DNA of 48,272 nucleotides from an uncultured Peptococcaceae bacterium. Its GTDB lineage: Bacteria > Bacillota > Dehalobacteriia > UBA4068 > UBA4997. Below are positions 15,190 through 31,467 of this stretch, in pieces. Both the position numbers and the translations under genes were made by a program. The DNA is taken from assembly GCA_947626615.1 (NCBI GenBank), contig CANQSW010000001.1:1-48272 (forward strand), given 5' to 3'. Positions within the stretch are counted from its first letter, which is position 1. Each line of letters starts with the position of its first letter. Below the pieces are notes generated by a model, which saw only the letters and a program-made list of their open reading frames with translations, was not told the origin of the DNA and did not search any database.

Positions 15190-16308
15190 CTACTCTGCAG
15201 TCGCGTCCGGGTCAGTCGTGAATATCATGACCCACCAGACATATCCATCTGCATCCACGGAAACATCTATACCTGCTCTTGTATGAGTGGGATCCATGAC
15301 ATTGTCACGATGCGGCGGCGAAGCCATACAATCACTTACTAACAGATCCATATCAGCATAATGGATGCCGTAAGCAACGTTTTCGCCGCCCAGGACGTTA
15401 TCGTAGCCGACCTCCGGCAGGATCGTGCTCCAATCCCTGCCGTCTGGCCGCATATGCGGTGTTGGAGACCATTTCCATGCCACATCCTCGTCGATACGGA
15501 TTGCGGCGGCACGACATAATTCACCGTCCAGGATCGCTGGTTCCAGACCCTCCTTCGCTCGTTCAGCATTGAACTTCTCCAGCAATTGTTCGGGCAAAGT
15601 GCTTTGGTCAAAATAATACCAGCCTGCTTTCACCGGCGTTTCGCTGCGGCCATGCTCGTCAACAAAATTTGCTATCCTAACATATACGGAAGCAGCCTCG
15701 GCACGTGTCATATAGCCATAAGGATTGAACGTCATATCAGTGTTACCGGAGAAAATACCTAACTTGCAAGCCAACGTAACACGAGCTGGCCAGCCGCGAG
15801 TAAACTCCATATCATCATAAAGAGGTATAACGTTTTGATATTCCTCTGCAGGCGGTAAAGAACCTAACGAATCCAGAATGCTGTAAGAGATAGCTGCCGC
15901 CTTACAACGGAATATCGGGTCGGAGCTTTGCATGTTCCAAATATAGTTCAGACCATATTTTATGCAGACGTAATCGGTCGCGGTATACCATTCGTCACCC
16001 AAATTCAGGTCAGAATCGGCTTCAGCAGCCGCCACCTCGTTTGGGTAGAAGGCTCGCATCATTATCGCGATATATTCCCGTTTGGTGAGCTGGGCACCGG
16101 GGTCGAAAAGACGCTGCCCATTTACATCGGTGCCAACTCCCTCAATGGCACCATCGGCATAAGCGCGCTCTATATCACTATATGCCCAGTGTGTTTTAGG
16201 TACGTCCTTAAAAGTAGTCGGCGCTGCAAAAGCAGAAGTTGCCATAGTAATCACGAGCACCACTGTCAACAGCGTACAGATGAGGATCTTTGTGTTTTTA
16301 CTATGCAT
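15190..16308 (-). CDS. secreted SLH-domain protein with C-terminal CAP/SCP (PR-1-like) domain
   Basis: Signal peptide MHSKNTKILICTLLTVVLVITMATSAFA. SLH motif FKDVPKTHWAYSDIERAYADGAIEG. C-terminal ...ELCRAAAIRIDED...GENVAYG...HRDNVMDPTHTRAGIDV resembles CAP/YkwD-like domains. RBS AGGAGG. Confidence 0.7.
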   Translation of the reverse strand: MHSKNTKILICTLLTVVLVITMATSAFAAPTTFKDVPKTHWAYSDIERAYADGAIEGVGTDVNGQRLFDPGAQLTKREYIAIMMRAFYPNEVAAAEADSDLNLGDEWYTATDYVCIKYGLNYIWNMQSSDPIFRCKAAAISYSILDSLGSLPPAEEYQNVIPLYDDMEFTRGWPARVTLACKLGIFSGNTDMTFNPYGYMTRAEAASVYVRIANFVDEHGRSETPVKAGWYYFDQSTLPEQLLEKFNAERAKEGLEPAILDGELCRAAAIRIDEDVAWKWSPTPHMRPDGRDWSTILPEVGYDNVLGGENVAYGIHYADMDLLVSDCMASPPHRDNVMDPTHTRAGIDVSVDADGYVWWVMIFTTDPDATAE

Positions 16309-16508: not shown

Positions 16509-19490
16509 TTATTGGTTGTTTTGTACGAAGCGCATCATGATCGTTGCGATCTCGGCACGGGTCGCTTTACCGCCGGGATTCAGCGTACCGTCAGAGTTAC
16601 CGGCGATCAATCCTTTGGTATTAGCCCAAAGGATAGCGTCTTCAGCCCAGCCGCTTACCTTATTGTAATCTTTGAAACTGCTGCAAACGTTTCTGGCCTG
16701 AGCCTGATCGAATTCGGTATCGTAGCCGGCCTGCTCAGCATAGCGATAAAGTATCGCCGCCAATTCCTGACGGGTAATATCGCTGTTAGGAGCAAACTTG
16801 TTCTCACCGACACCGTTCACGACATTGCCGTTTGCCGCCCAATCGACTGCCTGAGCATACCATTGGTTCCTGGATACATCGCTGAAACCGACCGCCGTGG
16901 TGCTGGGCTGTCCGGCCATGCGATACATCACGGTAACGATCATAGCACGGCTGGCGTTATCGTTGGGACCAAAGATACCATTGGAAACTGCGCCCATCAG
17001 GTTCTCTTCAGAAGCCCACTTTACTGCACCGGCATACCATGATGTGACTTTTACATCGCGGAAGTCGCCTACATAGGAAACGCTGTTGTTAACAGCAGTA
17101 TTGTTGGCGGCAGCCTTTTCGGCAGCAGCTTTTTCCGCAGCAGCCTTTTCGGCAGCAGCAGCTTTTCTTTCTGCAGCCAAATCGCGCTCCACCTTGAAAT
17201 TTCCGTTACCATCAACGGAACAGAACACGGGAAGATCACCACCACCGTAATACCATACCGCTTTGCCGTCGATCTCAATAGGCTGACAGTCAGAGAGGAA
17301 AGCATCAGCGGTATAGATCTTGCCGCATCGACCGTCTCCGTCAACAATGGTATATTTGAGGGTTCCGGTGGTATTACCTTTAGCGTGCTCATTCCACAGG
17401 AGAACGAACTTGTTATTAGCGATCTTCACCAGCTGCGGGTTGCCTGCTGCGGCGATCTGACCGTTGGTATAAGAAGATACCTGATATTTCTTCACACCGC
17501 TCTTGGTCAAGTTATCTTTGTCCACCGCATAGATCACGATGTTATAGGCATTACTGCTGTCAAAGTTGCCGCTCTGTTCATCGATTGCACCGGCGATAAG
17601 ATAATTGGAACTGCTTTCCTCAAAACCGCCCAGTTTGAAGCCGGTAGTACTTTCGCCGATACCGCCGACAAACTCCTGTACGTTCAAGATCTCACTGTTT
17701 TCGCCGAGGAACTTCTCCTTGCCGGCGGCACCGTTAAAGCGTACTATGACAGCAGCCCGCGGATAACCGTCGCCGTGGTCCAATGTTACGATATTAGCGT
17801 TACTGTCAGCCAATATAAACTGGTTGAAGGAATGGGATACGTAGCCGTATCTGAACTGAACCACCTCATAGAACTTGTCAGTCAACTTCATATCGCTTTG
17901 ACGCAACACCAATGTCATGTTGGCCTGGTGGCAAAGACCGTCTGAGCTTCTGTACATTTTATGGCAGGTATGGATCAAAAGTTGGTCGCCGGCCTCGGTC
18001 ATACGCAGACTGCCAAAATCAAAGGGAACAGAGGTATTGGCGCCCATAAGACTGAACTGATCCAGTCTCCGCCAGTTTTTGTCATATTTTACGACACGAA
18101 TAACTTCCACACTGTCAGAGAAGGAAGGATTGCTCTGTCCAAATACCATAAAGTTATACATCTGACCGCTATAGAAGCCACCAAAGATAGGTAATTCCTG
18201 GTCGATCTTCTGAGATGTCAACAGATTAAATTTAGGATCGTAGTTTTCTATTAATACCTTTTTGCCATTACCTTCGTTAATAGCTTCAACACGAGTAAGA
18301 TTATCGTCTGCTCTTTGATACAGATAAGACCACACCGTCTTGCTGGGGAAGCGATAATACTCATTCTCTATAGTGCTGTAAGAATTGTTGGCGACAGCAT
18401 TAGGATCAGCCACTATAGGATCTTCTTCCGGGGCATCCAGCCGCGGTATCGTCTTAGTATAGGTATCGCCGCAGGTTTTACAAGTATAGGTCAGTTCGCC
18501 GTCATGGGTCGTAGTGGCGATCCTAGTCACCTTTTCCTCATATTTATGGCCCAGAGCGTTATAGGTCGAAATGACCTCACGTTCACCGCACTTTGTGCAC
18601 ACGCGGCTATAACTGCCCTCTTCCGTACAAGTGGGCTGGGTCGTCTCATATTTCCAGCTGTGATAGGTGCATTTAGGCGTCTCGGTCTTTTCGGTATAGG
18701 TATCACCGCAGACCGTGCAGGTATAGGTAGTGATACCATCTGCTACAGTCTTTCTATACTTGTGGCCGGTAGCTTTATAAGTCGTAATGACTTCACGTTC
18801 ACCACACTTTAAGCACACACGGCTATAACTGCCTTCTTCAGTGCAAGTGGCCCGGGTCGTTTCATATTTCCAGCTATGGGTACATTTAGGTGTCACGCCC
18901 TGTTCGATTTCGGCTTCGGTTTTAAGGCAGTTAGCACAGACACGGGTAATGACACCATTTACCTCAGCCTCTACAAATCTGTGGCCAAAGGGTGTGTAAG
19001 TCTCGACGACTTCATACTCACCGCAGACCAAACACGTACGTGTATAATTGCCGCCTTCCGTGCAGGTGGGATAATTCTTCTTATATTTCCAGGAGTGTTC
19101 TATGACGGGAAGCGTCTCAATTTTCTCCACAGTGCCGCAGACGCTGCACTTGCGCTGAACATAGCCCTCCTTAGTACAAGTCGCTTCTACTCTTTCTTCC
19201 TCCCAGACATGCTCACAGACAGTAGGCTGCTCCTGTTCCAATGGAGGTGTAGTTTCTGGTGCAGTCTCTGTCGTGTTTCCGCCCTGCGTTCCGGTATCGC
19301 CGCCTCCCTGAGGATCTCCCTGTTCAGAGGGCGTTCCCTCCTCGGGGCCGTTTTGCGGAGCTGTATTAACAGACGGCTCTGTTGTTGTGCTGCCGTTAGT
19401 CCCATCGGATTCTTCAGCCAGCGCTATCGAAGAAAACAGTATAAACATCATACCGACCAGCAAAATAACAGCAAATGTTCTCTTTCTCAT
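16509..19490 (-). CDS. large S-layer-anchored surface protein: signal peptide, Cys-rich repeat modules, beta-rich central domain, AEKAA linker, three SLH domains
   Basis: 993 aa. MRKRTFAVILLVGMMFILFSSIALA signal peptide. Repeated HSWKYETT.ATCTEEGSYSRVC.KCGEREVI..Y...GHKY modules (residues about 92-347). C-terminal FRDVKVTSWYAGAVKWA, FSDVSRNQWYAQAVDWA and FKDYNKVSGWAEDAILWA SLH motifs. Confidence 0.8.
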   Translation of the reverse strand: MRKRTFAVILLVGMMFILFSSIALAEESDGTNGSTTTEPSVNTAPQNGPEEGTPSEQGDPQGGGDTGTQGGNTTETAPETTPPLEQEQPTVCEHVWEEERVEATCTKEGYVQRKCSVCGTVEKIETLPVIEHSWKYKKNYPTCTEGGNYTRTCLVCGEYEVVETYTPFGHRFVEAEVNGVITRVCANCLKTEAEIEQGVTPKCTHSWKYETTRATCTEEGSYSRVCLKCGEREVITTYKATGHKYRKTVADGITTYTCTVCGDTYTEKTETPKCTYHSWKYETTQPTCTEEGSYSRVCTKCGEREVISTYNALGHKYEEKVTRIATTTHDGELTYTCKTCGDTYTKTIPRLDAPEEDPIVADPNAVANNSYSTIENEYYRFPSKTVWSYLYQRADDNLTRVEAINEGNGKKVLIENYDPKFNLLTSQKIDQELPIFGGFYSGQMYNFMVFGQSNPSFSDSVEVIRVVKYDKNWRRLDQFSLMGANTSVPFDFGSLRMTEAGDQLLIHTCHKMYRSSDGLCHQANMTLVLRQSDMKLTDKFYEVVQFRYGYVSHSFNQFILADSNANIVTLDHGDGYPRAAVIVRFNGAAGKEKFLGENSEILNVQEFVGGIGESTTGFKLGGFEESSSNYLIAGAIDEQSGNFDSSNAYNIVIYAVDKDNLTKSGVKKYQVSSYTNGQIAAAGNPQLVKIANNKFVLLWNEHAKGNTTGTLKYTIVDGDGRCGKIYTADAFLSDCQPIEIDGKAVWYYGGGDLPVFCSVDGNGNFKVERDLAAERKAAAAEKAAAEKAAAEKAAANNTAVNNSVSYVGDFRDVKVTSWYAGAVKWASEENLMGAVSNGIFGPNDNASRAMIVTVMYRMAGQPSTTAVGFSDVSRNQWYAQAVDWAANGNVVNGVGENKFAPNSDITRQELAAILYRYAEQAGYDTEFDQAQARNVCSSFKDYNKVSGWAEDAILWANTKGLIAGNSDGTLNPGGKATRAEIATIMMRFVQNNQ
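17108..17178 (-). repeat. in-frame 15-nt tandem repeat encoding the (AEKAA)n linker
   Basis: gcagccttttcggca / gcagctttttccgca units. Translation is AAERKAAAAEKAAAEKAAAEKAAA, just upstream of the SLH triplet. Confidence 0.8.
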
Positions 19491-19625
19491 AATGTTTTTC
19501 CCTGCCTCCCCTGTAATAATATTTTTATTTTGTTTTGTTTTTCAAACAAAAACAAAACGCAAACGATAATTTAATACCAATATTTGTTATCGTCTAACTT
19601 ATCAGGTTGACAAACTTAAAAAGCT

Positions 19626-21767
19626 TCAATAGTCATAACTTCTGTATTTAGCCTCGTATACAGGGACTACATTATAAACATCATCATCAATTTTTCTTGT
19701 CTCGCCGTTTTCCCACATATAAAGCTCACCCTTGTGATAGTTAAGGTTATAATCATACAGATACAGAATACGTCCGCCGGGTATACTATAGAACTCGTAG
19801 ACATCATCTAAGGTCTCTACAATTTTACCATCCTGGTAGATCTTCAATGTACCATAAGCCTTATCGGCATTCCGATCTGTAAAATAAATCACTCTGTCGA
19901 AGTCACCACTCACTCCAACGTAATAGATATCTACACCGTGATCAATTTTTGTCTTGTTAATATAAAGTTCACCAATGTAATCTTTACAATCCTTGTAGTA
20001 TTGAAAATTGTCGCCACCTACAAAACAACAAAAACCAGTGTATACATTATTGTCATACAGCTCAGCTTTTCCAACAACGCCATTAGAAATAGAAATACGA
20101 TATAGATCACCGTAGTCTTTTTCGTCCGGAATATTGTCTAAATAGTAAACTACTGTGCCAGAAGAATTAATTTGAAATTTTTTGGCTTCCTTTACTTGTT
20201 CAATAAGCGTTGCGTTGTCTTTTACTGCAATATATTTATCTGACGAGGAGACTAAAGCAGCTTCAACCATTCCCTCAAGATCATAAATGTTTTTAACTTC
20301 GGAGAGTTTTACTTTTTCAAGATTGGATTGATTGTAAACTTCGTAAATAATAACAGGCTCATCGGATGCATAAGTACACTTATAAGTATAGCCATAAGAA
20401 TATTTATAGGCGCCACCCAATGCATCGGTGATTACGGTTGTCTCTGTGCCATTATAAAAGCAAAGAGAACTCCTAGGCCTCTCCATTTTTTTCCCTTCAA
20501 GGGAAGTTCTCAATTCGTCACGAGTTGCTTTTGCCCAATATGTCTCTAAGGCTGTAGAGTATTCCGTTTCCATACGATCATACTCGTTCTTCCAAGCCTC
20601 ATATGCATCTTCATATGCTTCATAAGCCGCATTATACTCAACATCAGAGCCATAGTCCCACCAGGAAGGAGCAATCGGAGCTTTAGGATAGTTAGGATAG
20701 CTCGGCTGTATCATAGAGTCATCAGCATCCTTCATGTCGTCTATTACATAATCCATCAGAGAAATCTCGTCGTCTTCACTGGTCAAGTAATAAATCTCTC
20801 CGGTTTCATAAATCTTAATCACATCATAAACGTTAGATGCGATTTTTACACTATCCTCACCTTCAACCTGCTTATATAAAGAATCTTCTTTAATGTAATA
20901 TGCAGTCTTTAAGTCGTTACTTAAGTATTCAAGAGAAGATACCTCACTTGCAATTTTTTCTTTGTCGTTATCTGCAGATTTACGATAAAAACTCCCCTCA
21001 GAATTGATATAAGCGATTTTTGTTCCGTCATCAGAAACGTTAAATTCTTTAACTTCACTGGCAATCTTATCCTTAGAGTCATCCGCAAGTTTATATTGAT
21101 ACAAACTTCCTTCTTCACCCTTGAGATAAGTAACAATACTTGTAGAAGTGTTTACGGTATAAGACTGAACATCAGAGTCGATCATAATTGCTTCGGATTC
21201 GGGTTTTCCAATCTCTCTGTAATAAAGATCGAACCTATACTCTTGACCGATCGTCCAGTAATTATCAATAATCTTATTGGGGAAAAAGATGTACTTACCA
21301 TCCTCACTCATATAAATACAGGCCCCTAAAGGTATATTTACTAAAGTTGTATTTCCCAAACCGCTATCATCGAGTCCAGAAGTCAACTGCAAAGCTTCGC
21401 TATCTTTCTTCAAATCAGAAAAGAAGATTTCGCCATCTTTTAAATAGAGCGCAAAGTCATTTTTAGCTTTACTTCCACTGGGCATCAGAGAGATCACGAG
21501 GATCAAAACTACTGCCAATGCTACGCCGATCCCACCAAATATAATTGTTTTTTTAGGAAACTTCTTCTTCTCGGCGAGAGCTGCAGGTCTTGCCTCGACA
21601 GGAACATCAGTTATTGATGCTCCACAACTTTGACAGAAAGCAAATTCGGTGCTTGTCTGCTTACCGCATTTAGGACAAAAAATAGTTTTATAAATCTTAG
21701 CACCGCAACCGTCACAGAACTTTACATCATCATTCAATTCCTTGTTGCATTTAGGGCACGTTATCAT
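19626..21767 (-). CDS. double zinc-ribbon / single-TM protein with large repeat-containing (propeller-like) ectodomain
   Basis: 713 aa. N-terminus CPKCNKELNDDVKFCDGCG then CPKCGKQTSTEFAFCQSCG. TM IIFGGIGVALAVVLILVISLM. Three 37-aa repeats each contain KIAS(E/N)V, and the C-terminal half is Tyr-rich. RBS GGAGGA. Confidence 0.8.
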   Translation of the reverse strand: MITCPKCNKELNDDVKFCDGCGAKIYKTIFCPKCGKQTSTEFAFCQSCGASITDVPVEARPAALAEKKKFPKKTIIFGGIGVALAVVLILVISLMPSGSKAKNDFALYLKDGEIFFSDLKKDSEALQLTSGLDDSGLGNTTLVNIPLGACIYMSEDGKYIFFPNKIIDNYWTIGQEYRFDLYYREIGKPESEAIMIDSDVQSYTVNTSTSIVTYLKGEEGSLYQYKLADDSKDKIASEVKEFNVSDDGTKIAYINSEGSFYRKSADNDKEKIASEVSSLEYLSNDLKTAYYIKEDSLYKQVEGEDSVKIASNVYDVIKIYETGEIYYLTSEDDEISLMDYVIDDMKDADDSMIQPSYPNYPKAPIAPSWWDYGSDVEYNAAYEAYEDAYEAWKNEYDRMETEYSTALETYWAKATRDELRTSLEGKKMERPRSSLCFYNGTETTVITDALGGAYKYSYGYTYKCTYASDEPVIIYEVYNQSNLEKVKLSEVKNIYDLEGMVEAALVSSSDKYIAVKDNATLIEQVKEAKKFQINSSGTVVYYLDNIPDEKDYGDLYRISISNGVVGKAELYDNNVYTGFCCFVGGDNFQYYKDCKDYIGELYINKTKIDHGVDIYYVGVSGDFDRVIYFTDRNADKAYGTLKIYQDGKIVETLDDVYEFYSIPGGRILYLYDYNLNYHKGELYMWENGETRKIDDDVYNVVPVYEAKYRSYDY

Positions 21768-21825
21768 TGCGTCATCCTCCTACATACAAATTATAAAACT
21801 GCTTTGATTTGTGTAAAGATATCTC

Positions 21826-22446
21826 TTATTCTATAAGCAGAAGTTTCCATTTTCCATTTTCTTTTGTCATCGTAATTTGAACCAGCATATCAACAGATTC
21901 CTCTCCTTTTTTTGCAGTAATCTCTATATCTGCACCCTTAACTTGCGATATAGTACTAATATCAAAGTCCGGATAACTTGATTCTATTTCATATAATAAA
22001 CTATCTAACTTTCTTCCGGAGATCGTATAAATCTCCTGTATATCATAGCTCAGCTTGTAGTTGTGCCCTACAGATGATTCAAAGAAATCCAAATCATCCC
22101 CTACATTATTCTCGAAATAATACTCGACCCTGTCTACACTGTCATAATAAAATATATCGCTTGACAGATCAACCAGCGTATCAATATCATACTTCTCATA
22201 TGCAGTCATCACTTGCCGCAGCAGTCCATTGTACCCCATGTATTTTGGAACGATATTAAGTGCAATCACAACAACTACGATTAAAGCAATCGCCCCAACG
22301 AAAAGCTTAATTTTTGTTTTGGTTTTTTTCTGCTTTTTCTGATCTTGAATATCTGTTGATACTCTGTCAACCGGCGTTCCGCATTGATCGCATACATTGG
22401 CATCATCTGTCAATTCAGCACCACAATTACCACAAAATTTCGACAT
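21826..22446 (-). CDS. zinc-ribbon / single-TM protein with small ectodomain (NTF2/DUF4878-like guess)
   Basis: 206 aa. MSKFCGNCGAELTDDANVCDQCGTPV, Lys-rich linker, TM LFVGAIALIVVVVIALNIV. The ectodomain ends ...ITMTKENGKWKLLLIE. RBS GGGGAGGT lies inside the 3-prime end of the upstream gene. Confidence 0.75.
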   Translation of the reverse strand: MSKFCGNCGAELTDDANVCDQCGTPVDRVSTDIQDQKKQKKTKTKIKLFVGAIALIVVVVIALNIVPKYMGYNGLLRQVMTAYEKYDIDTLVDLSSDIFYYDSVDRVEYYFENNVGDDLDFFESSVGHNYKLSYDIQEIYTISGRKLDSLLYEIESSYPDFDISTISQVKGADIEITAKKGEESVDMLVQITMTKENGKWKLLLIE

Positions 22447-22453
22447 AAGTAAT

Positions 22454-25258
22454 TTACCTCCCCGCGTTTCTTCTTTTTACTTTATGCACAGTTATTACAA
22501 CAAACAGCAAGCATAGCAAACTGCAGCCGCCTATAACAAAATAAGTAAGCTTGCTTTGCTTAATCTCCTCACCATAACTATTTTCCCCTGCACGTAGTCG
22601 CACATCATACTTCCCATCGCCATTCTCATCTATGTTTAGAGTACTTTGATCAGAAACAGCTGCTTTTGTATCAATGACAGTCTTTTTTGTAATCTTGACA
22701 TTTTCAAACCGTCTAAGATCACTATAATTGCCATTATCATCCATAAAACCGATAGTATAGTCCATAATTCCATGTCCTGTACCGATAAGTTTTAAATCGT
22801 AATCAGCGCCTTCTTTTAATCTTAGAACTTTTACCCTGTCATCAATACCGTTTGCTAAATCTTCTTCGTCTTGTTCAAAAGAAAGTGTGCCGAAATCTGT
22901 TCTAAGATTCAGATCTTTTTCAGAAGAGCTAAGTGTTTGCCCTTCATAAGTAACAGATACATCTACAGGACAAGCGATCCGTACATAGATATATTTCTGC
23001 CCGTTGATCTGATCTGCCATATCCCCAAAGAAGAACATTAAATCATCTGCATTTGCCACTTCATAGTGGCAACCATCACTGGCAATCCGCTCCATTAGTT
23101 GTTGAGCAAATGATTTATAGCCTCCCAGATTTTCAAAAAACCCTAATGTGTAAATAAGAACTCCATCTTTTTTTATCTCATCCGCATAATCAACGAGATC
23201 GTCACCCACTTTACCGTTGTTTGGCTCTCCATCGCTCATAAGCACAATAATTTTCTTTTTGGCAGTACTGGCACTAAGCATAGAATGCGCTTCCTTTAAA
23301 CCCGCTTCAATATTTGTCCCTCCACCAGAATGAATATCAGATACGATACTTTCAAGAGATTCTTTGTTCAAAGAAAAGTCTGAATTGCGATTGGCGTAAT
23401 TGTCATATGTGACTACGCCTATACTTGCATTCTCCTCAAGAATTGTATCAATAAAGTTTACGGAAGCCTTGCGAGTCTCCTCAATTGGCCTCCCTGACAT
23501 ACTGCCGGAAACATCAAGGACAAGTACAATATCTCTTTCATCATTATTAAAAACAAAATTTTCTGCACCTTTTTCTCCAAATATTAGAGGGGTAGCAACT
23601 TCTTCTTTGTTTCCATATTTACTATCGTTTTCACCATATTTCTTTTTGGCCATTGCAAGCGCTTCTCCTAATGTGTAAAGCCTCCCAGTTTTCTCATTAT
23701 AATGTGTCATATTTTCTAAGGTTGCATTTTGAACTAGTAAATTATAATCGGTACATATTGTTTCCGAATTAGCAACTACTGCTTTGGCTCCTTTTCTCAA
23801 AAAAGAATCTGCTAATACGTTATCTTTTCCACTCTGACAAGCAGCAAGATAAAGAAATGTACCGTTTAAATTGTTACAATATTTATCGATGTATTTTGAT
23901 GTAAATGCCACATTGCCATTAAGACATTCTACAATTCGATTTTCCATATTATCAAGACGGTAATTCGAATCCGACTGAAATGCATCATAATCAAATTCTT
24001 CACCTGTTAAAAGATACGAATGTAACGAATCGGAATATCCGCCATGCCCGTGCCAAATTATTACCTGATTTTCAGATAATGCTTTTATCTTATTTAATGT
24101 AACTTCTTGATTGTCATAATTATTTTCTGCATTAAACTTATACAATGACAATTTTTCGCTTATCTTTTCCGCTGATAAGTCAGGCAAGATCATGTACTCA
24201 TTCATTTCTGATGAATATGTGTTTAAACATGGTTGAAACGTGAATACAGAAATATTGACATTTTCACCTATAGCATCTATGCCATAACGCTTTGGCAAAT
24301 ATATATATGTCAGTCCATTCTTAAATTTAAGTAGGATTGAATTATCTGACACTTCATAATACAATACATCTCCGTTTTTATATAGATTTTCTGCATACCC
24401 TTCGACTTCTTCCATTACAGCAGAAAGATCACTTTCTTTGACATAACCATCGTCACCACAAAATGTTTCTTCTATTGCTATAATATTTGCTTGAATTTTT
24501 TGAATTTCCGATACAGATTCTTCAGTTGGCCTCTCAAAAAAATATAAGTACACCATTTCTGAAATATATTCTTCAGTTTTACAATAATAGCTTTTAGAAC
24601 CCAACTCTGATACAACGGATATCGTGTTAGCATAGATTCCGTCTCCAGCAAACGAATCTCCATTTTTGCCATTATCAAACATTTTGCACACTATTTTATC
24701 ATCTGAATATTCATACAAATCTACATAATCTGGTTTTTTACCTTGTACAGAAACTGAAAAAACAACATTTACCTGCTCATTTTCCCAGAAACAATTTTCA
24801 TTTGATGTAAAATTCTCCAGCAAACTATCATCATCAGTTTCTATATCACGTTCATTATTATTTGGCAACAGTTCAACACGATCGATTATTTTTTCTATTT
24901 CAGGTATATCAACTATGTCAAAATACACAAGTGCACCAAGTGCAGCTATTACAAGCACAGCAATCAACAGAATAATCAAAATTAACTTAAAGAGAAATCG
25001 AAGAATCTTTTTGCTAATAGACAATCCGGCTCGTTCTTCTTTCTTTTCAGTTTTAATTTCTTCCTTACGTTGTTTTCTAGCTTCTCTCTTGCTAAACCGT
25101 TCTTCAGTAGATGCTGACCGATGATTGTTTGTTTCACCTTCATTAGATGCTACAGGCCCTGGCTTCTGTACCTTCTTTAATTCATCTGCGTTGCAGTTTG
25201 GACAAAAGCCCGTATTTTCATCCAACTTTGCGCCACACTTCCCACAAAATTTTACCAT
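22454..25258 (-). CDS. zinc-ribbon / TM / clan-CD-like His-Cys peptidase-like domain / vWA (MIDAS) domain / beta-sandwich / C-terminal TM anchor protein
   Basis: 934 aa from the ATG at 25256-25258 (RBS GGAGGAGG; the track ORF extends spuriously to 25384).
- MVKFCGKCGAKLDENTGFCPNCN zinc ribbon
- TM LFKLILIILLIAVLVIAALGALVYF
- VIIWHGHGGY (DNA about 24041-24060) and FLYLAACQSGKD (about 23830-23850) resemble a caspase/gingipain His and Cys pair
- DIVLVLDVSGSMSG...GGGTNIEAGL...IIVLMSDGEPN is a vWA MIDAS pattern (about 23000-23533)
- C-terminal LTYFVIGGCSLLCLLFVVITV followed by HKVKRRNAGR. Confidence 0.8.
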   Translation of the reverse strand: MVKFCGKCGAKLDENTGFCPNCNADELKKVQKPGPVASNEGETNNHRSASTEERFSKREARKQRKEEIKTEKKEERAGLSISKKILRFLFKLILIILLIAVLVIAALGALVYFDIVDIPEIEKIIDRVELLPNNNERDIETDDDSLLENFTSNENCFWENEQVNVVFSVSVQGKKPDYVDLYEYSDDKIVCKMFDNGKNGDSFAGDGIYANTISVVSELGSKSYYCKTEEYISEMVYLYFFERPTEESVSEIQKIQANIIAIEETFCGDDGYVKESDLSAVMEEVEGYAENLYKNGDVLYYEVSDNSILLKFKNGLTYIYLPKRYGIDAIGENVNISVFTFQPCLNTYSSEMNEYMILPDLSAEKISEKLSLYKFNAENNYDNQEVTLNKIKALSENQVIIWHGHGGYSDSLHSYLLTGEEFDYDAFQSDSNYRLDNMENRIVECLNGNVAFTSKYIDKYCNNLNGTFLYLAACQSGKDNVLADSFLRKGAKAVVANSETICTDYNLLVQNATLENMTHYNEKTGRLYTLGEALAMAKKKYGENDSKYGNKEEVATPLIFGEKGAENFVFNNDERDIVLVLDVSGSMSGRPIEETRKASVNFIDTILEENASIGVVTYDNYANRNSDFSLNKESLESIVSDIHSGGGTNIEAGLKEAHSMLSASTAKKKIIVLMSDGEPNNGKVGDDLVDYADEIKKDGVLIYTLGFFENLGGYKSFAQQLMERIASDGCHYEVANADDLMFFFGDMADQINGQKYIYVRIACPVDVSVTYEGQTLSSSEKDLNLRTDFGTLSFEQDEEDLANGIDDRVKVLRLKEGADYDLKLIGTGHGIMDYTIGFMDDNGNYSDLRRFENVKITKKTVIDTKAAVSDQSTLNIDENGDGKYDVRLRAGENSYGEEIKQSKLTYFVIGGCSLLCLLFVVITVHKVKRRNAGR

Positions 25259-25346
25259 GGTACTCCTCCTCCCATGCATAACATTTTGAATCACAAAAAA
25301 GTAAAGACAGTGGTGTATTAATGCTATCCACTGCCTCTGCTCGTCC

Positions 25347-25631
25347 TTATCCCATATATTTATCGATAAGTTTGTCACCAACAAGGAAGGAGATCATCCC
25401 CAAGTTGATTGCTTCGGCACCAAGAAGGATAAAGATAATATTTTCAATGATGTCAATAACGCTGACTATCAAAGTGACAACACAGAACCATACAATCGTG
25501 CTAAACATTTTATCAACTACAACTATAAGATTATTGATAAAACCGATTGTATCAAAAATCAAGTCGTTACTATTAGCAAAGAAAAGAATAGTAACGGTAC
25601 TACTGACTTCCCAGCAGCCTTGTTCAACCAT
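25347..25631 (-). CDS. possible small hydrophobic protein (hypothetical)
   Basis: 94-aa ORF co-directional with the cluster, with hydrophobic stretches (STIVWFCVVTLIVSVIDII, IFILLGAEAINLGMISFLV). No convincing RBS. A plus-strand ORF of similar size overlaps it. Confidence 0.3.
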   Translation of the reverse strand: MVEQGCWEVSSTVTILFFANSNDLIFDTIGFINNLIVVVDKMFSTIVWFCVVTLIVSVIDIIENIIFILLGAEAINLGMISFLVGDKLIDKYMG

Positions 25632-25764
25632 TCATTTGTCGCAAACATAAAATGGATCCTGCCAAAATGACTATGTTCGCTAAGAAAACACATTAACCAA
25701 ATCACTACATCCAACAGACCAACATAAATTCTCAGACTCTCCCTTTTCCTCGGTTCATTATAAC

Positions 25765-26346
25765 TTATAACTTATTTCCACACTCAGTGCAGAAAATAGA
25801 GCTATCATCTACTTTTGCACCACATTTTGAACATACACGATCAAGCGTTTCAGGCTCATCCTCAGCTACAGTGACAACAGATGAAACAGGTTCCAACGGT
25901 TTTCCACAAGCCGTACAGAATCGCATTCCTTTTTTCACCATGGCACCACAATTACCGCACTTTACATAGTCAGCAGGATCGACCGTTTCGATCTTAGGTA
26001 TAGGTGCACCACATGAGCTGCAAAAAGCAGCATCCTTAGATAACTCTGCTCCGCACTTTTCGCAACATTGCACCCCTTTAATATCTTGAAGCTGCTTTTT
26101 ACAGTCATTTATCTTCGCTTCAGCATCAGCGATTGCCTTAATCATTTCTACGAATTCTTCTTTGCAGTCCTCTTTATGAATAGAAAAATACAATTTGCCA
26201 AGTTGACAGTATAGACTTGAAAGATTTTTCTCTTCTTCGTTAATTAATGAGTTAAGCCTTGAGGTATCTGCAATTTCTTTTGTTTTAGCAATAGTCTTTT
26301 GTCCCGTTTCAGTAACAGCTTTACTAATTTTATCAAAGAAAGCCAT
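25765..26346 (-). CDS. soluble coiled-coil protein with three C-terminal zinc ribbons
   Basis: 193 aa. N-terminal MAFFDKISKAVTETGQKTIAKTKEIADTSRLNSLINEEEKNL... is helical or coiled-coil by composition. Then CEKCGAELSKDAAFCSSCG, KCGNCGAMVKKGMRFCTACG and CSKCGAKVDDSSIFCTECG. No TM. RBS GGGAGGG. Confidence 0.8.
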   Translation of the reverse strand: MAFFDKISKAVTETGQKTIAKTKEIADTSRLNSLINEEEKNLSSLYCQLGKLYFSIHKEDCKEEFVEMIKAIADAEAKINDCKKQLQDIKGVQCCEKCGAELSKDAAFCSSCGAPIPKIETVDPADYVKCGNCGAMVKKGMRFCTACGKPLEPVSSVVTVAEDEPETLDRVCSKCGAKVDDSSIFCTECGNKL

Positions 26347-26370
26347 CGTATTACCCTCCCGTTTATGTAT

Positions 26371-26652
26371 TTACGAATTTAGCTCTTGGATCCCTTTATA
26401 ACAATCGTCGCAAACAAAAACTATTATTCCAAGACCAGAAGTATAGTGCTTTGTAGCTTTTCCGGAACAAAAGAAACATTCCGAAGAACAGTCTGCACAA
26501 TAGTACTCGTTTTCGCCTGTATATTCGTTTTTATACGCCTTTGTCGGAGTTTGACCACAGGACACACACGGTTCAGATGAACCACACGCTGAAAGAGTAA
26601 AGATCAACGCAATAAAAACCAACATAGCAATAGTTCGTTTAAGATAAATCAT
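26371..26652 (-). CDS. small Cys-rich lipoprotein
   Basis: 93 aa. Signal peptide with lipobox LSAC (…IFTLSACGSS). The mature part has 10 further Cys, including CVSC, CADC, CFFC and CDDC pairs. RBS GGGAGGA. Confidence 0.75.
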   Translation of the reverse strand: MIYLKRTIAMLVFIALIFTLSACGSSEPCVSCGQTPTKAYKNEYTGENEYYCADCSSECFFCSGKATKHYTSGLGIIVFVCDDCYKGIQELNS

Positions 26653-27705
26653 TCTTTTTTCCTCCCTTGATCACTACATTTTCTGACTGTGCATATAACG
26701 ATTTGTGTTTTAAAGGACTTGACATTTTCTTAATGAATATTCCGGTATGACAAGAGACGCTTTTTCAGACACCTCTCTTGTTTATATGTTTTGCCTAAAC
26801 CGATAATCTTTCGCGAAAATTTGAATCACAGCTCTTGGTGCATGCGCCGCTCGAAAACTACACCTGTCGCGTCGAATTTCTACATCATAGCCGCTGAAAT
26901 CCTACAGTTTCATGGCAGACCATATAGTTACAAGATTTGAAATATTTTATGCACCATATACTGCAGTCACCATGCACCATTTCGTCCAGCCAGAACGCAC
27001 CAAGGAATGCGGTCTAGCTTGCAGCACCAAGGCAGTGGACTTCAATGGCATTGTCCTGCTTGAGTGACGCGGCTGTTCAATCAAGCGACGAAGATGTTCA
27101 ATTACAGCGTCGCAATTGTTCATTTTAAACAACACAGAGGTTTGATATCGCTGTCTTACTCAGCAGAAGTGGCTCTCAAGTTCCGGAATGCTGGCTCTCA
27201 TCTACCGGACAGACAGCTCAATGACCTCCAAAATATTCATCCCGATATTGGAACGTAGAAAGTGCCATATTGTACTTTTTCACTGTCGCTAAGACAGTGA
27301 TCATCTTTGTATTTCCGAACTGCCAGATGCGGCAAAAGTACTATGACAAAGAATATGGCAACCATCATAGACACATTCTATAGGTTTTCGCCGCCACGAT
27401 GTTTACGCTTGATAATGTCTAATGTTGACGCGGATATAATCATAAATCGCTATCTCAGTCCCTTTTTCCAACACATACTATTAGTTTTGTTTTGTTCATT
27501 AATCAGATAAGACCATCCAAAACATCTCGCTTTGTAATTATGTTGTCCTTATGCAATAGAAAATCATGAGAAGCAATTTGATTATTTGTGCGATCATATT
27601 AAGCAGTTAGTTACCTACATTACTTCTTTCTTCAATGCGCCGTGGCTCTTCGATTACGGCGGCAAGTTCGTTCTACAGATCCATTACTGAATATAAAATT
27701 GTTCT

Positions 27706-27744
27706 AAACCAGAAAACCACTGGCTGGAAAGCCCAACCAATGGT
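27706..27744 (-). terminator. possible terminator after lgt
   Basis: ACCA(C)TGG 27716-23 pairs with CCAATGGT 27737-44, 13-nt loop. On the minus strand it is followed by TTTTCTGGTTT. Lies 16 nt after the lgt stop. Confidence 0.4.
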
Positions 27745-27759
27745 CTTGCAATATACACC

Positions 27760-28572
27760 TTATTTTCGGCTGGCGCTACGATTTTGATTGTCTAAAGTCG
27801 CACCACACTTATACGCTATTAATTTGCGAGACATACAGATAAAAGCAACTGCTAACAAAATAAAAATGCTAAGCCATTGCGAAACGGAAAACAACCCTAT
27901 TATCCCCCGCTCTTTATCATCATAGCGTAAAAATTCCAACAAAAACCGCAATATGGCATAGGTACCAAGATATATGTAAGGCATTTCTCGCAATCTTTTG
28001 CCTCTTAATACCATATACAAAAATATAGCTGCCAGGGAAAAATTAATAAATGCCTCTAAAAGCTGCACCGGAAATAGCGGCACACCGATCGGAGCATACG
28101 CCGGCGCATGATAAACAATACTGCCGATCCCGTCATAAGGTATACCATAGCAGCATCCAGCAATATGACAACCAATACGACCAAAACCATGTGCAAGAGG
28201 CACACAAGGAACGATTATCTCGGCATATTTTCTAGCGTTTATTTTATGTATTTTACCAGCGGCAAAAAAGGCTGTCAGACCACAAAGCAAGCCACCGTAA
28301 AACACATAACCACTTGCTAACAGTTGCTTCAGATAGCTCAAAGATGTCAAATGATCCCATTCTATCTGGTCTCTCAAAAGAAAAATACTTAAAGCTTTTG
28401 CACCCAAAAGCCCTCCGCATATTGCATATGCCCCTAGAATCAGCAGCTCATCGTCTGACAAAGCATATTTCTTTACCAGACAATAAGCTACTGCCGTTGA
28501 GACTATCAAACCTAATGCAACCAAACAGCCATAAAATGGAATAAACCTGCCAAACAGATAAACACCTGCCAT
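27760..28572 (-). CDS. lgt: prolipoprotein diacylglyceryl transferase (island-borne copy)
   Basis: 270 aa polytopic protein. Lgt signature motifs YGGLLCG, HGFGRIGCHIAGCCYG, FPVQLLEA and RFLLEFLRYDD. Its ATG directly abuts the TAA of the upstream gene. Confidence 0.88.
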   Translation of the reverse strand: MAGVYLFGRFIPFYGCLVALGLIVSTAVAYCLVKKYALSDDELLILGAYAICGGLLGAKALSIFLLRDQIEWDHLTSLSYLKQLLASGYVFYGGLLCGLTAFFAAGKIHKINARKYAEIIVPCVPLAHGFGRIGCHIAGCCYGIPYDGIGSIVYHAPAYAPIGVPLFPVQLLEAFINFSLAAIFLYMVLRGKRLREMPYIYLGTYAILRFLLEFLRYDDKERGIIGLFSVSQWLSIFILLAVAFICMSRKLIAYKCGATLDNQNRSASRK

Positions 28573-28830
28573 TTAGGGAGCAACTGCACCAAATGCAGCC
28601 AAGCCTCCCACACAGGAAGCACAGGCAACAACAAACAAAACGGAAAGTATCAAGCCAATGATAGAACAGACCAAGCCGGCTTTAGCCAGCGATGCACGTT
28701 CCGGCACTTTTTTCCCCAAAACGCCAAGAATGATACCAACAACACCACATATGGCACCAATAGGCAGACCAAAACCAAATACCGCTGCTACGATCGAAAC
28801 GATACCTAAAACCAACGATGCAATAGCCAT
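28573..28830 (-). CDS. DUF4190-like small Gly/Ile-rich membrane protein
   Basis: 85 aa, MAIASLVLGIVSIVAAVFGFGLPIGAICGVVGIILGVLG...LVCSIIGLILSVLFVV. RBS GGGAGA. Translationally coupled to lgt. Confidence 0.65.
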   Translation of the reverse strand: MAIASLVLGIVSIVAAVFGFGLPIGAICGVVGIILGVLGKKVPERASLAKAGLVCSIIGLILSVLFVVACASCVGGLAAFGAVAP

Positions 28831-28854
28831 TTTTATTCTCCCTTCAAATTAAAG

Positions 28855-29043
28855 TTACATTCTAGCAACACAATCATTCTTATCCAAAGTCAGAGCATAA
28901 TGTTCATTACCGGGCATAATCGATTGTATAAACCCTAAAGAACGCAGATACGTCAAAACCCTCTGTTGTTCTTTGAAATTTAATTGTAAAAACAATTCAA
29001 TAAATTCTTCTTCTTTGTTGTTCTGATTCGATTTTTGCCGCAT
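28855..29043 (-). CDS. hypothetical 62-aa protein, first gene of the DUF4190-lgt operon
   Basis: Good RBS (GGAGGTG, 5-nt spacer). Divergent from the XRE gene. No family recognised. Confidence 0.5.
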   Translation of the reverse strand: MRQKSNQNNKEEEFIELFLQLNFKEQQRVLTYLRSLGFIQSIMPGNEHYALTLDKNDCVARM

Positions 29044-29080
29044 AAAAACACCTCCACTTTAGGCAATGTGTTGCAAACAC

Positions 29081-29109
29081 AATATAACACAATTTGTTTG
29101 TGCCGTCAA
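29081..29109 (-). promoter_or_regulatory. promoter of the 62-aa/DUF4190/lgt operon
   Basis: On the minus strand: TTGACG (29104-29109), 17-nt spacer, TGtTATATT (-10 hexamer at 29081-29086). Confidence 0.55.
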
Positions 29110-29133
29110 CACTCTTCGACGATTTCTTTTGTG

Positions 29134-29162
29134 TTGACGAACCTTTTTTAATGTTGTATGAT
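29134..29162 (+). promoter_or_regulatory. promoter of the XRE regulator gene
   Basis: TTGACG (29134-29139), 17-nt spacer, TATGAT (29157-29162). Its -35 box is one arm of the 9-bp inverted repeat CGTCAACAC (29104-29112) / GTGTTGACG (29131-29139). Confidence 0.55.
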
Positions 29163-29209
29163 ATACTTGAAAAATATAAGTTGTAACTGGTTGGGGAGGA
29201 ACTGACAAG

Positions 29210-29566
29210 TTGAAAAATCGTGTTCGCATAATAAGAAACCAGCTAAATTTATCACAACGAGAATTTGGAGAGAAACTGGGCGTCAGCCGCGATGTTATCA
29301 GTAACATAGAATATGGACGAGTACAGCCTAAGGAGTTGTTACTGAAGCATATGTGCCAGCTTTTTAACGTTAATCCCGTTTGGTTGCATACAGGTAATGG
29401 CAAAATATTCTTAGACGAGCCCATCTACAACGAAAATCTTAAAGAGGCTATAAACATCTTCTCCCAATTGCGACCAGAGTTTCAAGCATACGCCTTGGAG
29501 CAGATACGCAATTTAGTCGAGTTGCAGGAAAAATACCCGCCGGATACCATGATAGCAAACAAGTAA
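29210..29566 (+). CDS. XRE-family helix-turn-helix transcriptional regulator
   Basis: 118 aa, TTG start after GGGGAGGAA. IRNQLNLSQREFGEKLGVSRDVISNIEYGRVQP is a classic HTH_3 motif. Confidence 0.85.
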   Translation: MKNRVRIIRNQLNLSQREFGEKLGVSRDVISNIEYGRVQPKELLLKHMCQLFNVNPVWLHTGNGKIFLDEPIYNENLKEAINIFSQLRPEFQAYALEQIRNLVELQEKYPPDTMIANK

Positions 29567-30024
29567 AATAGAAGAGCCAAATCATCACTCCCATATAATC
29601 AAACCAACTCCTTCCGTAGCTCAATTGCTTTTTTACCGCAACTTGCAAATGAGGTGCAAATCTTTTAAATTTACAACATTTAAAAAGTCTTTTAAAATGC
29701 AAAAAAAACATTGATTTGGTTTATATTATAGTTTAAAACTATATTTTAGGATCAGTAGATACAGAATGATTTTATTATCCATTCAAAACTTTCAGGATCA
29801 AAATTTTGCATCGCCTATCAAATGACAAGATTTGGTTTTTTACAGAATACCATTCTCTATCATGGCGATTTTTCAAACGGACATGAAAGAACGACAAATC
29901 ATTTTTAAAGCATCTGCATTTACTCCTACTATATATAAAAGGTAAAGAAAATGGATTTTCGGAAAAGTTTTTCCAAAAATTTTTATTTTTTAGTAATTCT
30001 TTTCGCCGACCTTATTCTTACCGC

Positions 30025-30076
30025 AAAAAATCAGCATATCTTTATGATCGGATTCATAAGGATACGCTGATTTTTT
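30025..30076. terminator. bidirectional intrinsic terminator at the right inner edge of the island
   Basis: A6-TCAGCATATCTTTATGA-loop-TCATAAGGATACGCTGA-T6. The core stem is 17 bp (1 mismatch, 1 wobble), flanked by A6 and T6 runs. Confidence 0.6.
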
Positions 30077-30084
30077 AAACCAAT

Positions 30085-30159
30085 AAAAAAGAGAGAAGTA
30101 TCAGCCTGATCCCTCGGCGACACAGGCATTCTCTTCTCTCTTAAATACTTAAAGGTTAC
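30085..30159. repeat. 75-bp direct repeat, copy 2 (right boundary; terminator-like element downstream of tuf)
   Basis: Identical to 14838-14912. On the minus (tuf) strand it folds as AAGAGAGAAG...CTTCTCTCTT (10 bp), enclosing an inner GCCTG/CAGGC stem, and is followed by T6. Confidence 0.95.
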
Positions 30160-30264
30160 TGTCGGCTGTCCAATAGGATACGACCCTCGGCATGAGCCAC
30201 ACCCTCACAACAGACCTTTATAAGCCAAACTTTTTTAACTGTTTTGATACTTTTGCTCCTACGA

Positions 30265-31467
30265 TCATTCGTTGATCGCAGTAACAACACCGGCGCCTAC
30301 TGTACGGCCACCCTCACGAATTGCAAAACGCAGACCTTCCTCGATAGCGATCGGGGTGATCAGCTCGATGTTCATGCGGATGTTATCGCCGGGCATTACC
30401 ATCTCTACTCCTTCCGGCAGCAGAGCTACACCAGTAACGTCGGTGGTACGGAAATAGAACTGCGGACGATAGCCGTTGAAGAACGGAGTATGACGTCCAC
30501 CCTCTTCTTTGGTCAGTACATAGACCTCACCGCTGAATTTGGTATGCGGATGAATGCTGCCGGGTTTAGCCAAAACCTGACCACGTTCGACCTCTTTACG
30601 ATCGATACCACGCAGCAGTGTACCGATGTTATCGCCTGCTTCGGCAAAATCGAGCAACTTGCGGAACATCTCTACACCGGTAACTACGGTGTTCTTCGGC
30701 TCATCCATCAAACCTACGATAGATACTGCATCGCCCACTTTGACCTGACCACGTTCAACACGGCCGGTTACTACGGTGCCGCGGCCGGTGATGGTGAATA
30801 CATCCTCGATCGGCATCAGGAACGGTTTGTCGATATCACGCTCAGGCGTAGGAATGTAAGAGTCAACTGCATCCATCAATTCCCATACCGGGCCGCAGTC
30901 CGGGCAATCACGTTTGCCGCAGCCGCATTCCAGAGCTTTCAGAGCAGAACCCTTGATGATCGGAATATCGTCGCCCGGGAAATCATACTCGGAGAGCAGT
31001 TCGCGTACTTCCATCTCTACCAATTCCATCAGTTCGTCGTCATCGACCTGGTCAGCCTTGTTCAGGAAAACTACGATGTAAGGTACACCTACCTGACGGG
31101 ACAGCAGGATGTGTTCTCTGGTCTGGGGCATCGGACCGTCAGCTGCCGATACTACCAGGATAGCACCGTCCATCTGGGCTGCGCCGGTGATCATGTTCTT
31201 TACATAGTCGGCGTGTCCGGGGCAGTCAACGTGAGCATAGTGACGAGTTGCCGTCTCATACTCTACGTGAGCAGTGTTGATCGTGATACCACGAGCTTTT
31301 TCCTCAGGAGCCGAGTCGATCTGATCATAGGCCTTGGCTTCTGCGCCGCCGGCAGTTGCCAGACAACGAGTGATCGCTGCAGTCAGCGTCGTCTTGCCAT
31401 GGTCAACGTGACCGATCGTGCCGATGTTTACATGCGGCTTGGTGCGTTCAAATTTCTGTTTTGCCAT
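30265..31467 (-). CDS. tuf: elongation factor Tu
   Basis: [33 protein letters not shown]... is canonical EF-Tu, 400 aa. Confidence 0.98.

Follow-up and report, generated by a model that had tools for sequence, protein, structure and literature searches.

The window analysed here is a stretch of 48,272 nucleotides from an uncultured Peptococcaceae bacterium (contig CANQSW010000001.1 of assembly GCA_947626615.1). Between its ribosomal protein and translation factor genes lies a low-GC island with a small cassette of genes for zinc-ribbon and surface proteins, and the subject of this work is a protein of that cassette, encoded on the minus strand at 22454..25258. This open reading frame (ORF) is intact and specifies 934 residues followed by a stop codon; its product is identical to P0001 of the homologue set and places a domain with paired His and Cys motifs beside a VWA domain with a metal ion-dependent adhesion site (MIDAS). 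Family conservation and structural models suggest that the His/Cys domain belongs to a distant family of clan CD cysteine peptidases.

The ATG at 25258 is the likely start of translation because a strong Shine-Dalgarno-like sequence, GGGAGGAGGAG (25263..25273 (-)), precedes it and the orthologues begin at the same MxKFCGKCG; a longer, TTG-initiated frame also exists. From this start the protein runs through a zinc ribbon, a first transmembrane (TM) helix, an Ig-like domain, a linker of helices and β-strands, the His/Cys domain, the VWA domain, a β-rich region and a second TM helix with a basic tail. An earlier note on this DNA had listed the zinc ribbon, the first helix with positive residues on its N-terminal side, the motif of the Ig-like segment, the His and Cys motifs, the VWA pattern, the β-rich region and the terminal helix followed by HKVKRRNAGR, and every one of these features was found where it had been placed, on the minus strand. 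All coordinates given below for parts of this protein refer to that strand.

The His/Cys domain and clan CD

Local alignments with the 25 homologues obtained from a database search show that residues 147-570 form a unit shared among proteins of differing architecture. Two AlphaFold models were made of this unit, one of the whole module (residues 140-575, from a 17-sequence alignment, with a predicted local distance difference test score (pLDDT) of 89.8) and one of the domain only (residues 297-575, pLDDT 91.5, predicted template modelling score (pTM) 0.84). In the former, an Ig-like sandwich of eight strands is followed by a helical hairpin, a small β-meander and an α/β domain, the peptidase-like core (residues 336-560; 23579..24253), which adopts the α/β/α caspase-hemoglobinase fold in the models.

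When the domain-only model was compared with the PDB by Foldseek, the best match was SAVED-CHAT (8tl0; E 2.4e-5, TMq 0.52), with the Craspase TPR-CHAT protein, the periplasmic CHAT domain of DdvA (8rw5 and 8rot), separase, gingipain R and caspases-1, -4 and -6 further down in this order; the matches to gingipain R/RgpB (1cvr and 4ief) had TMq values of 0.45-0.46. Ranks 1-37 are all clan CD proteins (CHAT, separase, gingipain, caspase), the first protein from outside the clan stands at rank 38, and nearly all remaining matches belong to clan CD as well. The 11 matches with E<=1e-3 and a Foldseek probability of 1.00 are without exception clan CD, and the whole-module model retrieved the same clan CD families together with Ig-like structures. 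These results support the clan CD reading of the earlier note, which had cited a His-Gly and an Ala-Cys element on successive strands as the mark of this clan.

Both models show the strand QVIIW running up to the HGHG turn of WHGHG (residues 402-406), with C474 of the AAC motif (residues 472-474) directly after the strand FLYLAA; the two strands are neighbours in the core. A hydrophobic strand ending in His-Gly, a second hydrophobic strand ending in Ala-Cys and the His preceding the Cys is, as modelled here, the clan CD arrangement, and the spacing of 69 residues from H405 to C474 agrees with the figure given before. The alignment in which conservation was counted comprises 168 proteins, namely the best 150 of a profile search and further homologues from the database search. 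Among its informative representatives, H405 is kept in 165 of 166, G406 in all 166 and C474 in 165 of 166, so that the motifs are no product of chance. H403 is kept in 106 of the 168, and the catalytic candidate is therefore H405 (codon 24044..24046, checked, with G406 next to it) and not H403; the predicted catalytic Cys is C474 (codon 23837..23839, likewise checked), which lies in YLAAC-x-SG. Strong conservation is also seen at Q342-P343 at the end of the first core strand, S476-G477, D479, K489-G490-A491 and N497.

A sequence bridge to known families is provided by relatives of the protein. When 48 diverse members were compared with Pfam, six matched Peptidase_C25 at E<=0.01 (best E 4e-6) and three matched CHAT. 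The Peptidase_C25 match of P0143 reaches 26.6 bits and is above the gathering threshold of 23, and the CHAT (PF12770) scores of P0149 and P0167, 21.3 and 23.7 bits, are below the cutoff of 24; all three of these located matches start at the strand bearing the Cys equivalent to C474. On the strength of the family sequences and the models, the His/Cys region is best described as a distant, separately evolving clan CD family whose closest relatives appear to be C25 and CHAT, with H405 and C474 as the predicted catalytic dyad and catalysis as the putative function.

The VWA domain and the C-terminal module

The VWA domain (residues 576-736; 23051..23533) is recognised by Pfam with an E value of 8.7e-23 and 81.9 bits against a threshold of 23.8, and its sequence matches in the PDB include the VWA domains of Mfa5 and ITIH4. 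A phmmer search with the whole protein against PDB sequences returned VWA matches only. The MIDAS is complete, consisting of DVSGS (residues 582-586), GGGT ending in T648, and SDG (residues 675-677). In 137 aligned relatives, with each residue counted where its region is present, D582, S584 and S586 are each kept in 84 of 84, T648 in 109 of 109 and D676 in 123 of 124, the sole exception being one D676Q; the motif is thus not degenerate in relatives, in keeping with the complete MIDAS that had been noted earlier.

The β-rich region that follows (about residues 755-895; 22574..22996) has no Pfam or NCBIfam match at E<=10. A search with residues 571-934 found 174 proteins, in which the β-rich region always accompanies this VWA subtype and the second TM helix (residues 906-924; 22487..22543; mean Kyte-Doolittle hydropathy 2.53). 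In these relatives (P0196-P0315) the unit, which corresponds to 22457-23548 (-) here, follows quite different ectodomains, among them Peptidase_S8, Peptidase_M23, GDSL lipase, Lipase_3, Lectin_C and TPR domains. The VWA domain, β-rich region and TM helix together make up a separate and widespread C-terminal anchor module. In P0010, a zinc ribbon and TM helix like those of the present protein stand at the start and the VWA-β-TM unit at the end, with a Peptidase_S8 subtilase in place of the His/Cys module. This interchange of hydrolases is the best contextual support for the slot between the anchors being a hydrolase slot.

The N-terminal anchor and the Ig-like domain

The zinc ribbon (residues 3-24; 25187..25252), predicted to be cytoplasmic, has the pattern C5xxC8-x10-C19xxC22, both CxxC pairs of which are conserved in the orthologues; its score against Pfam Zn_Ribbon_1 (PF13240) is 22.9 bits, just under the 25-bit cutoff. 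A linker rich in Lys and Arg leads to the first TM helix (residues 93-111; 24926..24982), which has a mean Kyte-Doolittle hydropathy of 3.41 and is flanked by a net charge of +6 over the 32 residues on its N-terminal side and of -6 after it.

The Ig-like β-sandwich occupies residues 146-241 (24536..24823) and has eight strands with a pLDDT of about 90 or more. Within it, at residues 195-209, lies DNGKNGDSFAGDGIY, a motif of the choice-of-anchor X type; the match of residues 193-215 to the NCBIfam model choice_anch_X (NF041940) is marginal, its 25.6 bits lying just above the cutoff of 25. Between this domain and the catalytic core, the AlphaFold secondary structure shows a helical hairpin and a three-stranded β-meander (residues 246-320; 24299..24523), a linker that is conserved together with the core and is covered by the family profile in most relatives.

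Size and distribution of the family

Among 1.84 billion cluster representatives, the family profile matched 1,904 proteins at E<=1e-3, 636 of them at E<=1e-30; the family size of about 1,900 is a number of clusters at 50% identity. A start resembling a signal peptide is present in 91 of the 168 aligned family members, and an N-terminal zinc ribbon in 39, in 36 of which a TM helix comes next. The partner domains found in the 48 diverse members, CarboxypepD_reg, SLH, Big_2, SdrD_B, LRR_5, Flg_new, Lectin_C and NPCBM, are surface modules. By contrast with this breadth, the His/Cys module is joined to a VWA domain and a C-terminal TM helix only in the eight closest relatives of the 168.

A motif-seeded scan of one genome per species located 36 loci, nearly all of them in Clostridia of the gut and rumen: Oscillospiraceae, Ruminococcus (including R. 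bromii ATCC 27255), Lachnospiraceae and Christensenellaceae. The exceptions are one Erysipelotrichaceae bin and one bin labelled Bacteroidaceae. Since the loci are concentrated in gut and rumen Clostridia and the proteins carry signal peptides and surface partner domains, the module is an extracytoplasmic domain of gut Firmicutes.

The genomic island and its cassette

The gene lies in an island of 10.7 kb (19500..30200, that is 19.5-30.2 kb) with a foreign base composition, 37% GC against 56-60% in the flanks. On one side of the island is tuf, which comes after rpoB, rpoC, rpsL, rpsG and fusA, and on the other are genes for SLH proteins and rplC/rplD. An artefact of chimeric assembly as the source of the shift in GC was rejected, as both flanks are high in GC and carry genes of the str and S10 operons in the expected order.

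Six orthologous loci (L001, L037, L039, L040, L041 and L042) share the gene order of the cassette: a triple-zinc-ribbon protein, a Cys-rich lipoprotein of about 92 residues (in most loci), a membrane protein of 138 residues, the protein described here, a zinc ribbon-TM protein of 206-211 residues and a variable large surface protein. In the window, the first of these is a coiled-coil protein of 193 residues with three zinc ribbons recognised by Pfam and no TM helix (25765..26346 (-)), orthologues of which, 51-52% identical, lie upstream of the orthologues of the peptidase-like protein. The gene for the Cys-rich lipoprotein (93 residues, lipobox LSAC; 26371..26652 (-)) lies upstream of it in the window and has orthologues of 48-52% identity in L001 and L039. 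The 206-residue protein (21826..22446 (-)), with a Pfam Zn_Ribbon_1 domain, a TM helix and a small ectodomain, starts 7 nucleotides after the stop codon of the peptidase-like gene; an orthologue 52-55% identical to it lies directly downstream in L037, L001, L039, L040 and L041, and it weakly matches the N-terminus of TcaA. It is followed by a surface protein of 713 residues with a double zinc ribbon and a TM helix according to Pfam (19626..21767 (-)), which has weak similarity to the L001 protein at the same position. At this position downstream of the 206-residue gene, RCC1-repeat propellers are encoded in L001 (10890-12932) and L040 (6499-8505) and a BspA-type LRR_5 protein in L041 (8356-10404); it looks like a variable cargo slot. 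Pfam recognises zinc ribbons only in the cassette partners.

The gene for the 138-residue multi-TM protein is intact directly upstream of the orthologue in L001, L037, L039, L040, L041 and L042. Its copy in the window (25350..25747 (-)) is frameshifted, with tblastn matches split over two reading frames and without a start codon.

Genes for a MobA/MobL relaxase and a resolvase stand ahead of the cassette in L039 and L041, and a resolvase gene does so in L001. In the window, no integrase or relaxase gene, no relaxase or resolvase remnants in a tblastn search with the L039 proteins, and no tRNA genes or Rfam matches were found, and a repeat search across the island gave no convincing flanking direct repeats. 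The cassette is horizontally acquired. A role in defence was considered and rejected, as PADLOC found no defence proteins among the cassette proteins and neither MoxR nor a sigma factor is encoded nearby.

Some further observations concern the island and its borders. An XRE-type helix-turn-helix regulator is encoded at the tuf-proximal edge (29210-29566 (+)), and in L042 a divergent helix-turn-helix gene lies upstream of the cassette. A segment of about 1.1 kb at 26650-27760 contains no ORF of at least 70 residues and has no Rfam match; it may be what is left of former coding sequence. Between rpsJ and the low-GC island, at 15190-16308 (-) and 16509-19490 (-), lie the genes of two cell-wall proteins with SLH domains, one of which also has a CAP/SCP domain, with a GC content of 44-53%. 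The EF-Tu gene (30265-31467 (-)) specifies a four-Cys segment of 16 residues in domain 1, at a position where E. coli EF-Tu has GDAEWEAKILEL; the segment could be a zinc-binding insertion.

Proposed function and alternatives

The reading favoured here, and one that is rather likely though well short of certain, is that the protein is a surface-exposed, membrane-anchored clan CD cysteine endopeptidase built from three modules, in which the MIDAS of the VWA domain binds a ligand near the protease. The first module would be an anchor made of the cytoplasmic zinc ribbon, the basic linker and the first TM helix. The second would be a mobile extracytoplasmic unit consisting of the Ig-like domain, the helical linker and the peptidase domain with its H405(G406)/C474 dyad. 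The third, comprising the VWA domain, the β-rich region, the second TM helix and the basic tail, would set the MIDAS beside the protease and fasten the other end of the ectodomain to the membrane. The MIDAS would capture a protein ligand by an acidic residue and so hold or orient it near the membrane-proximal protease, which would then cleave it; the ligand might come from the host or the diet or be another surface protein. Autoprocessing, as is typical of the family, would be possible as well. A similar division of labour is known from complement factor B/C2 and from CLCA, where a MIDAS-bearing VWA domain docks a ligand and the linked protease acts on the ligand or on itself.

Several points weigh against this proposal. 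Residues 230-570 have no Pfam or NCBIfam match even at E<=10, and so the protein itself fails the gathering thresholds of both Peptidase_C25 (PF01364) and CHAT (PF12770). The module profiles A1 and A3 found no significant clan CD match among PDB sequences, a stretch of DdvA appearing at E 3.8. The TM-scores of the Foldseek matches are moderate (0.45-0.53), with root-mean-square deviations of 6-7 Å, and the relationship is therefore distant. The 69 residues between His and Cys are a longer spacing than in gingipain and the caspases and hold an extra hairpin and helices. Capture of a substrate by the VWA domain is suggested by analogy with other proteins. As the 138-residue neighbour is frameshifted, the locus may be decaying in this genome. 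Finally, some CHAT domains, such as that of DdvA, are resting or incomplete enzymes (PMC11506125).

The fold could also serve a different reaction. The clan CD domain would in this case be a transpeptidase or ligase for surface proteins, resembling the PorU sortase or the glycosylphosphatidylinositol (GPI) transamidase, or else a catalytically silent binding module. Clan CD does include transamidases, the Peptidase_C25 family to which the sequence bridge leads also covers PorU, and surface proteins abound in and around the cassette. On the other hand, the near-invariant His, Gly and Cys are at odds with a silent module, no acceptor substrate or conserved C-terminal signal was identified in the neighbouring proteins, and the subtilase that replaces the module in P0010 fits a hydrolytic role. 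Taken together, this account is unlikely.

A second alternative starts from DdvA, an anti-sigma factor proposed to signal by regulated proteolysis. In DdvA a TM helix joins a zinc-binding domain in the cytoplasm to a CHAT domain outside it, which is a precedent for the layout found here (PMC11506125). A ligand bound to the ectodomain, for example at the MIDAS, would switch on the clan CD domain, which would cleave its own linker next to the membrane; a further cut by intramembrane proteolysis would release the zinc ribbon to act together with the soluble triple-zinc-ribbon protein. The DdvA structures among the Foldseek matches are consistent with this, as are the zinc ribbons of the cassette partners, which always include the cytoplasmic protein with three of them and others that combine a zinc ribbon with a TM helix, and the cytoplasmic FHA domains, typical signalling modules, of VWA-β-TM relatives. 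However, the cassette has no conserved gene for a sigma factor or another regulator, the zinc ribbon, a pair of CxxC motifs within 22 residues, is not a ZAS-type domain, and most members of the family (91 of 168) are simply secreted by way of a signal peptide and joined to adhesin-type domains. In addition, the second TM anchor would retain the ectodomain after a single cut. Signalling of this kind is improbable.

It is equally a long shot that the whole cassette, borne by a mobile element, acts as one surface machine. The triple-zinc-ribbon protein, the Cys-rich lipoprotein, the 138-residue membrane protein, the protease-VWA protein and the 206-residue zinc ribbon-TM protein would then cooperate in a chain that leads from ligand capture at the MIDAS through clan CD autoproteolysis of the doubly tethered ectodomain to a transmembrane signal passed on by the zinc ribbons. 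Such a machine might be a Gram-positive counterpart of self-cleaving sensors of the DdvA type, or a device for mating or colonisation spread by mobilisable elements.

The last alternative concerns anchoring, and the earlier note had left two options here, an ectodomain held at both ends or one released by a sorting or cleavage step. If the C-terminal helix and the basic tail HKVKRRNAGR (residues 925-934; 22457..22486; predicted to be cytoplasmic) were a cleavable sorting signal, the mature protein would be released or attached to the cell wall rather than doubly tethered. The tail does have the general shape of a Gram-positive sorting signal, the orthologues share NGYGEE just before the helix and GG near its start, and the tail of the orthologue P0004 matches NF041738 (GG_III-CTERM) with 26.2 bits against a cutoff of 22; a literature search on the GG_III-CTERM name returned nothing relevant. 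Against this, LPXT[GAS] is absent from the last 60 residues of the protein and of all 168 family members, in line with the absence of an LPXTG-type motif noted before, the tail of the protein itself matches no CTERM model at E<=10 nor TIGR01167, and the cassette contains no sortase-like gene. A known C-terminal sorting signal was accordingly rejected, with one orthologue tail alone fitting GG_III-CTERM. In the relatives P0226, P0252, P0250 and P0306, moreover, a folded cytoplasmic domain, either FHA or a zinc ribbon, comes after the homologous helix. This is incompatible with a cleaved signal, and the C-terminal helix is for this reason taken as a genuine membrane span. A cleavable signal is unlikely, and of the two options anchoring at both ends is the better supported: both TM helices are strongly hydrophobic with positive-inside flanks, and the protein is probably a cell-surface protein held in the membrane at both ends.

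Comparison with known systems

The best structural matches of the predicted peptidase domain are the CHAT peptidases (SAVED-CHAT, Csx29/TPR-CHAT of Craspase and the periplasmic domain of DdvA) and separase, which have the caspase-hemoglobinase fold and the order of His before Cys in common with it. Unlike the CHAT enzymes, the protein described here has no Pfam CHAT match and lacks a sensor domain of the TPR or SAVED type. Most of the CHAT enzymes characterised so far act as defence effectors in the cytoplasm, whereas the present family is secreted or surface-anchored, with no defence proteins nearby. The difference to the DdvA-like TPR-CHAT anti-sigma factors is that neither a sigma factor gene nor a TPR was found at this locus and that the core comes after an Ig-like domain and a helical hairpin.

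The gingipains RgpB and Kgp and other C25 peptidases of the Bacteroidota are, like the present family, extracellular clan CD proteins of host-associated anaerobes with adjoining Ig-like domains and a GHG...AC pattern. In the gingipains, however, the Ig-like domain is C-terminal to the catalytic domain, whereas it is N-terminal here; the type IX secretion C-terminal domain is missing from the present protein, and the hosts of its family are Gram-positive Clostridia. In RgpB, whose dyad is H211 and C244, the spacer between His and Cys is about 33 residues long, compared with 69. Anaerobes that live with a host have major effectors in secreted clan CD peptidases, the gingipains among them, and the results point to a large clan CD domain family on the surfaces of gut and rumen Clostridia. 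Its members occur in cultured species too, such as Ruminococcus bromii ATCC 27255 (locus L013) and Ruminococcus sp. zg-924 (L016). Should the domain be active, part of the cysteine protease activity in the gut would have a source that has gone unrecognised, and the family would merit a model of its own in protease and domain databases. The protein described here, with its predicted protease domain linked to a VWA MIDAS and probably anchored at both ends, offers a defined test case.

Fusions of vWA and caspase-like domains are known from the vWA-MoxR (VMAP) ternary conflict systems (PMC7159879). These work in the cytoplasm, depend on a VMAP protein and a MoxR AAA+ partner, and are found chiefly in multicellular bacteria. 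The present protein, by contrast, is predicted to be extracytoplasmic, has the protease ahead of the vWA domain, which lies between two TM helices, and is found in gut Clostridia; no AAA+/MoxR genes are present in the cassette of the window or in the six orthologous loci. Factor B/C2 and CLCA differ in having serine or zinc proteases, another domain order and no such membrane anchors, so that homology is limited to the VWA fold. TcaA resembles the protein in its short cytoplasmic CxxC...CxxC ribbon, single TM helix and extracellular part, but has neither a protease or VWA domain nor a second TM helix. Anchors made of a zinc ribbon and a TM helix are common.

The earlier note did not recognise the fusion as a described architecture. 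Literature searches for the family and its architecture indeed found no description, with the papers on DdvA and on vWA-MoxR as the only, partial precedents, although the architecture is not a unique invention and is an assembly of three recurrent modules. What is new is, firstly, the family itself, which is large, almost confined to Clostridia in the sampled genomes and not covered by any Pfam or NCBIfam model able to detect the present protein, and, secondly, as far as the sequence can tell, the assembly of a protease domain and a VWA domain between two membrane anchors on a mobile cassette.

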